A DNA stretch of 35,441 nt, taken from a virus (taxonomy: Duplodnaviria; Heunggongvirae; Uroviricota; Caudoviricetes). Positions 32,910 to 33,866 of this stretch are shown piece by piece (position 1 is the first letter of the stretch; each line of letters starts with the position of its first letter). The stretch lies in IMG/VR virus record IMGVR_UViG_2529293216_000013; one strand, written 5' to 3'. The notes beneath the pieces were generated by a model. It was not told the DNA's origin and did not search any database. It saw only the letters and a program-made list of their open reading frames with translations. Both the position numbers and the translations under genes were made by a program.

Positions 32910-33866
32910 TTATTTTTGAATTGATTTAAACATCCCATCGAGTTGTAATTTATTTATGTCGGTTTTCTTTATGGCTTTAATTAAGTTTTCAATAACTTCC
33001 AAAGAAAAAATTACATCTTTCTTTTCAATTCTAACCCCCCCGTGGTGGCTGCAAGCATTAAGGATGTCCTTTGTAATTTCAACATCATTTTTCATTAATG
33101 GTTCATAGTCCAGAGCCTCAATAACAGAAACTAAACTACCTAGCATTTGCTCTTGGTATTGAACGTTGTTTAAATGCATTATACGAATATTAACAAGCAT
33201 GAGAATATATTCTAAATATCTCCTGGCAGTATTTCCTTTCTCTTGTAAAGAATCACGATCATATTCCTCAATACTCATGACTTCATTATGTAAAGAGGCT
33301 ATTTTGTGCTCTGCTAATGAAATATTTATCGCATCCATGAGGTTTCGTGAGAAGCCTGTAGATGTAACATGACCATTTGCGGGCCTTGTTAAAATACATG
33401 TAGTATAGCAATTTATATTTGGGGTCTGGATTGTCTCATTTACTCTTTTAACCGTTCTATAAACGTCTACCATATAAGAACCTGAGTTTTCAAATGAACA
33501 TGAAGAGCATTTTGTATTATATATTCTATTTAGAGATAACTGATTGTGATAGTATCCCTTTAAGAAAGCATATATAGTGTCATTAAACTCGACAAACACA
33601 ACGGACTCAATATATATATGGAATTTATCATTGGGGTGCCACTCTAATTCAAGTCTTCTTGTAGAGTCATCAAAGGAAAAGTTTGAAATAAAATCCCAGT
33701 TACCTAAATCTATAAAATCAACGATATTTCTACCTGCACCATGGATATTTTTATTTATTAAAGTTGTGATTGAGTTTTTTATAATGTCCCAATCATGAAT
33801 TTCATGATCGAATTTATTATTGATGGTTTCTTTTATTTGATTGGAAAAGTTTGAATAACTAGTCAC
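32910..33866 (-). CDS. Hypothetical AT-rich cargo protein (318 aa), unknown function
   Basis: Long ORF in very AT-rich DNA between primase gene and attR; no recognisable motif. Confidence 0.5.
   Translation of the reverse strand: MTSYSNFSNQIKETINNKFDHEIHDWDIIKNSITTLINKNIHGAGRNIVDFIDLGNWDFISNFSFDDSTRRLELEWHPNDKFHIYIESVVFVEFNDTIYAFLKGYYHNQLSLNRIYNTKCSSCSFENSGSYMVDVYRTVKRVNETIQTPNINCYTTCILTRPANGHVTSTGFSRNLMDAINISLAEHKIASLHNEVMSIEEYDRDSLQEKGNTARRYLEYILMLVNIRIMHLNNVQYQEQMLGSLVSVIEALDYEPLMKNDVEITKDILNACSHHGGVRIEKKDVIFSLEVIENLIKAIKKTDINKLQLDGMFKSIQK

Follow-up and report, generated by a model that had tools for sequence, protein, structure and literature searches.

What kind of gene sits between the alpha primase gene and the right attachment site of a P4-like satellite, and what would it do there? 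This question is raised by a stretch of 35,441 nucleotides from a Caudoviricetes virus record (IMG/VR IMGVR_UViG_2529293216_000013; this whole stretch is hereafter called the window), in which a gene, here called ECs0304, had been predicted to be accessory cargo of the satellite. Our analysis leads us to regard ECs0304, with about even confidence, as a functional, mobile single-gene cassette that occupies a minor accessory slot of the satellite and encodes a single-protein abortive-infection ribotoxin. In this we rely on the reality and selection of the gene, the boundaries of the cassette, its mobility, the two folds of a predicted model and the conserved residues; we infer the nuclease activity, the trigger, the dimerisation and the anti-phage role.

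ECs0304 is a genuine gene under selection

The 318-residue, adenine- and thymine-rich (AT-rich) open reading frame (ORF) at 32910-33866 of the original prediction was borne out by the ORF listing and by windows of guanine-plus-cytosine (GC) content. The ORF has 31% GC and the surrounding 500-nt windows have 28-34%, compared with about 52-55% in the primase operon. The gene and its ribosome-binding site are as follows.

32910..33866, minus strand: coding sequence (CDS) of ECs0304 / WP_000205213.1, 318 residues, GTG start (ORF listing and RefSeq annotation)
33874..33877, minus strand: Shine-Dalgarno sequence GAGG of ECs0304, 7 nt 5' of the GTG start (from the sequence)

In strain Sakai the gene corresponds to ECs_0304 / NP_308331.1, lying within the annotated 'prophage Sp2, P4-like phage', a feature that maps to window 21513-34399. 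The window is Escherichia coli O157:H7 DNA: many O157:H7 chromosomes hold the stretch with 100% identity, and the gene is entered there as WP_000205213.1, 'hypothetical protein'. The gene is carried by about 307 of 5,426 complete Escherichia coli genomes, and a query that includes it (32780-34541) is at least 99% identical across about 310 such genomes.

Close relatives of ECs0304 form 36 clusters from Enterobacterales and Aeromonas, and an exhaustive profile search yielded 108 family representatives at 50% identity, mostly about 320 residues long. Further searches of large databases with a wide profile and a C-domain profile added nothing beyond this family, and a pattern scan of genome contigs gave one locus only. 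The ratio of nonsynonymous to synonymous substitution rates (dN/dS) against the two closest homologues is 0.06 (Citrobacter copy) and 0.12 (second E. coli copy). Because of this spread of homologues and these low ratios, ECs0304 is a genuine selected gene rather than a chance ORF. The start residue is kept in 32 homologues, a GAGG-type Shine-Dalgarno sequence precedes the homologous genes in most loci, and all family copies examined have 28-35% GC irrespective of the GC content of the host. The start codon itself is GTG (33864-33866) in the O157 copy and ATG in the other homologous genes checked, save for TTG in Providencia; the GTG may reduce translation of a potentially toxic protein.

The gene forms a cassette in a second cargo slot of the satellite

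ECs0304 had been described as a second AT-rich cargo gene at the alpha-to-attR end of a satellite, and the thrW copy, attR and the Sakai Sp2 annotation confirm this placement. The left boundary of the satellite is a partial copy, 46 nt long, of the 3' end of thrW (21484-21529), and the right boundary is a degenerate attR, so that the gene lies inside an attachment-site-bounded P4-like element. The host flank common to about 3,670 genomes begins at 34400, and the Sakai Sp2 feature stops at window 34399. The satellite core comprises the integrase (21641-22873), Ash, DUF5375 and the alpha primase-helicase (30387-32777), and homologues of psu, delta and sid are listed in the RefSeq annotation. As predicted, ECs0304 (minus) is oriented opposite to the primase operon, being convergent with alpha (30387..32777, plus).

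When the window was aligned to an empty P4-like element (L018), homology extended up to 32805 and restarted at 34164, which sets the cassette at 32806-34163. It stands in place of about 20 bp, exactly between the hairpin behind alpha and a patch of iterons, whereas L018 has nothing between alpha and its patch rich in TGTTCAC(C) iterons. The features of this region are listed below.

32780..32810, unstranded: GC-rich hairpin, stem of 14 bp, separating the converging genes alpha and ECs0304 (terminator scan; homologous to the post-alpha hairpin of L018)
32806..34163, unstranded: inserted cassette of 1,358 bp, consisting of 104 bp on the 3' side, the ORF itself and an AT-rich 5' region of 297 bp that has sigma-70-like sites
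34164..34280, unstranded: satellite backbone patch with the inverted iteron pair GTGAACA (34180-34186) / TGTTCACC (34166-34173) (pattern search)
34396..34415, plus strand: degenerate attR, thrW 3'-end remnant GGTT-CCTATTATCG-CACCA (comparison with the thrW sequence)

The AT-rich upstream region had been put at about 500 bp; about 530 bp do separate the gene from attR, but only the 297 bp at 33867-34163 belong to the cassette, the sequence from 34164 being backbone (the iteron patch and the attachment site). The hairpin, which is mostly satellite backbone, is likely the terminator of alpha and possibly also terminates ECs0304 as a shared terminator. The patch shares 75% identity with what immediately follows alpha in L018 (6001-6117), a sequence that holds several TGTTCAC(C) copies, and is conserved to about the same degree behind alpha in other P4-like elements. 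It probably corresponds to the cis-replication region (crr) of P4, to which the TGTTCACC iterons are presumably tied.

A third satellite (L014), adjoining ypjA, has a cassette of 1,357 bp inserted at exactly this junction, with the counterpart of the iteron patch at ~8683-8714. Its cassette is about 75% identical to that of the window in nucleotides, and the encoded proteins share 77% identity. The slot between alpha and the attachment site is thus variably occupied, empty in L018 but holding cassettes that differ from each other in the window and in L014. The variable accessory position claimed for the gene agrees with this and with the primase-att hotspot of a 2026 survey, in which 7% of P4 defence systems sit between the primase and att (PMC13586616). 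A copy in a Citrobacter integrative and conjugative element (ICE) encodes a protein 80% identical to ECs0304; since homology there is limited to the CDS, the mobile unit is essentially the gene itself. Judged from these alignments, the cassette defines a second cargo slot of P4-like satellites to the base, between the alpha terminator on one side and the crr-like iterons on the other.

Within the cassette we found no meaningful repeats and no Rfam match. One 19-nt direct repeat was seen (33987-34005 in the 5' region versus 34407-34425, 16 of 19 positions identical), resembling the attR core (ATCGCACC.A...AAATCAA). It could be chance or the relic of a recombination site that captured the cassette; because it lies inside the cassette, we set it aside as a probable chance match rather than as a sign of tandem elements.

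The gene might also be a decaying or silent remnant without current function, an explanation that the data largely refute and that we find scarcely credible. The Lamassu system of the same satellite is fragmented, attR is degenerate, and the O157 copy starts with GTG; moreover, the sigma-70-like sites of the 5' region (34000-33971, 33964-33936 and 33918-33891) belong to a class of promoter-like sites no commoner in the cassette than in shuffled sequence. Against decay, the frame remains intact over 318 codons of 31% GC DNA, dN/dS is 0.06-0.12, the catalytic-type residues described below are conserved together with the Shine-Dalgarno sequence, and the gene-bearing stretch is nearly identical in the roughly 310 genomes mentioned above.

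The predicted structure has two domains, one with a HEPN fold

Searches of Pfam, PADLOC, NCBIfam and PHROGs with the ECs0304 protein gave no match. Against PADLOC-DB v2, 83 full-length family members gave isolated matches only (E > 0.002) and the ECs0304 query none. Sequence-family libraries searched with the same members returned sub-threshold noise save for AAA_13, DUF4145 and DUF3775, and PDB sequences searched with three profiles returned nothing. The claim that the protein has no recognisable domain therefore holds at the level of sequence, but it does not hold for the predicted structure, in which the C-terminal part has a HEPN fold. AlphaFold2 supplied with the family alignment gave a confident two-domain model (predicted local distance difference test 87.6, predicted template modelling score 0.83), with the following domains.

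33372..33866, minus strand: N-terminal domain (residues 1-165), predicted YojF/ChuX/PH-like beta-sandwich with a conserved acidic/aromatic cluster of D50, D53, W57, D58 and W76
32913..33371, minus strand: C-terminal domain (residues 166-318), predicted HEPN-fold helical bundle

The C-domain of the model is a compact all-alpha up-down helical bundle, as expected of HEPN. A Foldseek search of the PDB with the complete model returned nothing significant (best E 0.02).

Conservation was assessed over the 83 full-length members, which share only about 20% mutual identity. R215 is invariant in all of them and is the sole invariant arginine, followed by R/K216 and E219 on the long helix that precedes the one bearing N270 and H274. 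D50, D58, N181, N212, E219, N270, S273, H274 and G277 are kept in at least 90% of the members. Both domains are constrained, because conserved residues fall in each. The N-domain is a putative sensor or regulatory domain. In the C-domain, N212, R215, R216 and E219 lie on one helix, and N270, S273 and H274 at the C-terminal end of another, so that two motif regions can be recognised. Sub-threshold matches to DUF4145 (PF13643), which we take to be a family of the HEPN superfamily, were seen in two to three members (E 0.04-0.07), one of them spanning both motif regions.

Some members differ in architecture. Seven of the 83 (P0036, P0074 and five others; 470-520 residues, from GC-rich organisms) have an N-terminal extension of about 170-200 residues matching DUF3775 (best E 3.2e-7), and P0049 and P0088 (about 600 residues) have C-terminal extensions. 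Several proteins of 160-190 residues consist of the C-domain alone, starting at the conserved '...PK' strand.

The conserved residues resemble those of anticodon nucleases

The R-x3-E ... N-x2-S-H arrangement of ECs0304 resembles the constellation that is essential in the anticodon nuclease PrrC, where R320, N321, E324, N352 and H356 are all required (PMC1484252, PMC3025547). An Arg-x3-Glu on one helix is combined in ECs0304 with a His that has an Asn four residues before it. The PrrC motifs read LLRNLYEK and RIINFTSHS and those of the ECs0304 family GNTxRRxLE and NELSHDSG, with a Ser before the His in both, although the spacer between the two motifs is ~23 residues longer in the ECs0304 family. 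PrrC and RloC have nuclease domains that are classed as HEPN (PMC3710099), and these proteins and ECs0304 share a C-terminal helical HEPN-type domain, predicted in the latter, as well as a mobile, defence-associated distribution. PrrC and RloC are latent toxins held by the N-terminal domain of the same polypeptide, an arrangement that we propose for ECs0304 too. The N-terminal parts themselves differ, being an ABC-ATPase in PrrC/RloC, fused there to the C-terminal HEPN-type nuclease (Pfam AAA_13), and the predicted 165-residue beta-sandwich in ECs0304, in which no P-loop family match was found and hence no ABC/Rad50-like NTPase domain. Unlike PrrC, the ECs0304 loci also show no obligatory linkage to type I restriction-modification (R-M).

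At the level of sequence, full-length PrrC matches the AAA_13 profile at E 6.8e-16, with PrrC residues 189-356 on profile positions 519-692. Two distant ECs0304 relatives match it below the gathering score of 36 bits (P0115 at E 3.9e-5, another member at 1.5e-5), and the alignment of P0115 covers positions 602-712, in the same C-terminal region of the profile as the PrrC nuclease. Among the 83 full-length members, three match at E 7.8e-4 or weaker, again below the gathering score. The isolated PrrC nuclease domain has no AAA_13 match by itself.

For comparison, 46 PrrC ORFs were recovered from metagenomes via the published motif of the 'lysine anticodon recognising peptide' of PrrC, and the PrrC motifs given above are those of these ORFs. 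This peptide, KYGDSNKSFSY, was exactly conserved in 48 metagenomic loci (L025-L072), at which the PrrC homologues were otherwise fairly diverse and about 380-505 residues long (stop to stop, start untrimmed).

Several results weigh against a nuclease of this kind. N270-x3-H274 stands at the C-terminal end of a helix with the spacing of the canonical R-N-x3-H, but the arginine of the canonical Rx4-6H motif, which is usually R-[NHD]-x3-H and closes a core helix, is missing: the residue before N270 is never R in the 83 members, being L, A or S in 72 and T, C or M in most others. Position 267, which would serve an Rx6H motif, is variable (E, R, N or K), with R in 15 of the 83 members and, in the O157 protein, D. 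Since the arginine that is canonical for HEPN is absent, RNase activity of ECs0304 can only be inferred. In addition, the O157 protein itself has no AAA_13 match, and hhalign of the family C-domain against a shallow PrrC alignment gave a probability of 0.08%, which is not significant. The second essential arginine of PrrC (R349, seven residues before the His) also has no conserved equivalent in the ECs0304 family. We do not claim ECs0304 as a member of the PrrC/RloC family, given the non-significant hhalign result and the lack of both the ABC ATPase and the second arginine. From the model and the alignments, the C-domain is better described as a predicted HEPN fold with a PrrC/RloC-like residue constellation, outside that family.

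The missing arginine raises the alternative that the HEPN domain is non-catalytic, serving as a regulator or adaptor that binds RNA or nucleotides, in line with a proposal for MtlR-type HEPN domains, and perhaps acting by binding in conflicts with phages or mobile elements. The absence extends throughout the family, the O157 protein has no significant sequence match to a characterised RNase, and motif-less HEPN domains are probably non-catalytic RNA binders according to the HEPN survey (PMC3710099). What argues for catalysis instead is that R215, E219, N270, S273 and H274 are invariant or nearly so at about 20% identity, which is typical of a catalytic site, and that identical residue types and spacings are essential for PrrC catalysis; the toxin RnlA, too, draws on an additional Arg/Glu of another helix. 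We consider the non-catalytic alternative unlikely.

RnlA provides a second comparison. Its Rx4-6H motif lies at a helix C-terminus and its extra Arg/Glu on another helix (PMC8266594). RnlA/LsoA and ECs0304 share a beta-rich N-terminal part followed by a C-terminal HEPN domain (an RNase in RnlA/LsoA), and in both a subfamily-specific Arg/Glu pair stands on another helix beside the His motif. RnlA/LsoA act against phages, as we propose for ECs0304. RnlA was among the weak whole-chain Foldseek matches of ECs0304, at E 0.17-0.7, which are not significant. It has two TBP-like domains, the canonical Rx4-6H and the antitoxin RnlB, while ECs0304 has a single predicted ChuX/PH-like domain and no motif arginine, and no adjoining antitoxin gene of the rnlB/lsoB type was found across 12 genomic contexts. 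ECs0304 differs from HepT/MntA (MNT-HEPN) and from the single-protein HEPN abortive-infection proteins (AbiA C-terminal domain, ApeA) in having neither an MNT partner nor an Rx4HxY-type motif, and none of the PADLOC models, those of ApeA and the Abi families among them, matched its sequence.

Homologues are scattered over mobile elements and defence-rich regions

In the 12 contexts no conserved partner, antitoxin or non-coding RNA gene was seen beside ECs0304 homologues, and the cassette holds one conserved ORF only. The neighbours include possible or known defence loci. The Citrobacter ICE copy lies between an orphan N6/N4 methylase and ArdC, close to Septu PtuAB and a type I R-M system, and in L012 (12767-18309) Septu PtuAB together with type I HsdMS R-M is found near the homologue. 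In other E. coli the homologue follows directly after a thrW integrase and adjoins the candidate system PDC-M60 ABC (L016, 10446-15327). A Pantoea homologue sits at a prophage edge and, in one Pantoea sample, the homologue is beside a methylase/HATPase_c_3 cluster; the neighbours in L007 (1054-7052) are a DNA methylase, a HATPase_c_3/HEF_HK protein and a Response_reg_2 protein. One distant homologue adjoins an MmeI-type methylase. The Pectobacterium homologue is in an integrative mobilisable element (IME), after the MobA relaxase, and homologues in Proteus, Aeromonas and Serratia form lone islets without mobility genes. A patchy, mobile, AT-rich and solo spread in variable regions such as this is, as a sequence pattern, typical of defence or toxin genes, although it is not proof of such a role.

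These settings bear on the idea that the gene serves the life cycle of the satellite itself, through exploitation of the P2 helper, control of replication near crr or superinfection exclusion specific to P4/P2. ECs0304 adjoins the alpha primase and the iteron patch, its homologues occupy the same junction in two different P4-like satellites, and the Providencia homologue lies in a satellite-like element with a Toprim primase and Ogr/Delta. Most homologues, however, are outside satellites, in the ICE, the IME, the prophage edge and the islets, and since other P4-like elements have an empty site, ECs0304 is not part of the satellite core. A role in the satellite cycle is very improbable.

A toxin-type selfish or establishment gene is another candidate, with functions in addiction, competition against rival elements or anti-defence on entry into a new host. 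The Citrobacter neighbours, an orphan methylase and ArdC, are classic anti-restriction/establishment genes, the Pectobacterium copy follows a relaxase, and the bare CDS moves between very different elements. Addiction and entry make little sense, however, for lone chromosomal islets without mobility genes, and the family has no conserved antitoxin partner. HEPN effectors serve overwhelmingly as defence or toxin modules, and none is known to act as an anti-defence factor. We give this explanation a rather low probability.

Sequenced phages and plasmids are almost devoid of the family, each collection giving one match. The phage match is an unannotated protein of Psychrobacillus phage PVJ1 (MZ983385.1, 1718-2131) with 29% identity over residues 146-286. 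The plasmid match, on a 47-kb E. coli plasmid (NZ_CP044147.1, 43348-43965), shows 51% identity over residues 85-293 in three pieces without an annotated gene, and is possibly a pseudogene.

Proposed function

An abortive-infection factor made of a single gene had been suggested for this locus. The predicted C-terminal HEPN fold makes that idea concrete and more plausible, as do the defence-rich neighbourhoods of the homologues (Septu, type I R-M, PDC-M60 and methylases), and the missing canonical arginine stands against it. In the abortive-infection ribotoxin that we favour, the N-terminal beta-sandwich would keep the HEPN domain silent. Its conserved acidic/aromatic pocket may sense a cue of infection in the form of a phage protein or of a small molecule, and this cue would free or dimerise the HEPN domains. 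HEPN endoribonucleases are metal-independent and build their active site at the interface of a dimer. The active, probably dimeric HEPN domain could then cleave tRNA or mRNA with a residue set like that of the metal-independent anticodon nucleases PrrC and RloC. Translation arrest would abort the infection and protect the clonal hosts, and hence the satellite.

More tentatively, and as something possible rather than probable, we propose ECs0304 as the founder of a stand-alone ribotoxin family not described before, in which an Arg/Glu pair on helix 1 of a PrrC/RloC-like HEPN nuclease replaces the Rx4-6H arginine and a YojF/ChuX/PH-like gate takes the place of an ABC ATPase or an antitoxin, making it a new single-gene anti-phage system.

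If the predicted function is right, E. coli O157:H7, with about 300 complete genomes, harbours a one-protein toxin, acting against phages or arresting translation, that has gone unrecognised and that PADLOC, Pfam, NCBIfam and PHROGs miss. The HEPN/anticodon-nuclease theme would also gain a minimal architecture in which the regulatory domain is new and the active site non-canonical, with a bearing on the ways in which HEPN catalysis can be rebuilt. The base-precise slot between the alpha terminator and crr is a convenient starting point for mining the second and lesser-known hotspot in P4-like satellites. In kind, the proposal holds no surprise: that P4 hotspots abound in novel defence genes is already known, and HEPN abortive-infection proteins are common.

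Both kinds, abortive-infection proteins with HEPN domains and defence cargo of P4 satellites, are well established. What is new is the ECs0304 family, its predicted ChuX/PH-like plus HEPN architecture, the arginine-less motif and the base-precise insertion point. Literature searches for WP_000205213 and ECs0304 gave no mention, and ECs0304 does not occur in the supplementary text files of Rousset 2022, which list the psu-int hotspot only. ECs0304 lies not in that hotspot but in the minor primase-att interval (PMC13586616), and its family does not figure among the systems that either paper names or tests. A construct of Rousset 2022 from O157:H7 FRIK944 was considered as ECs0304 and rejected, being the 'cytidine deaminase' system of a different P4. 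Crouga, Bandua, Aernus, Toga, Reve and Hailong (PMC13586616) were likewise rejected, as their compositions differ.

Neighbouring parts of the window

The main P4 hotspot directly after the integrase (22877-26153, plus strand) holds a Lamassu system identified by PADLOC, which has a degraded look.

22877-23293 and 23266-23883, plus strand: LmuA, two ORFs (PADLOC)
23868-24341, plus strand: LmuC, intact (PADLOC)
24307-24966, 24997-25587 and 25587-26153, plus strand: LmuB, three ORFs (PADLOC)

The LmuB region (ECs_0293) is a pseudogene in the Sakai annotation. With Lamassu fragmented in this way, the principal defence system of the satellite may be dead while ECs0304 remains intact.

The window contains no intact thrW tRNA. 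Its first part (1-21483) is a prophage, with a dense array of minus-strand genes at 225-9161 followed by tail-fibre/invertase-like ORFs that resemble the right end of Sakai Sp1. This prophage, which lies upstream of the satellite, spans at least 21 kb, compared with 10.6 kb for Sp1 in Sakai, and in strain PV15-279 the Sp2 integrase is truncated by IS1203. Because of these Sp1-like length differences and the IS1203-cut integrase, the thrW locus is highly plastic among O157 strains.
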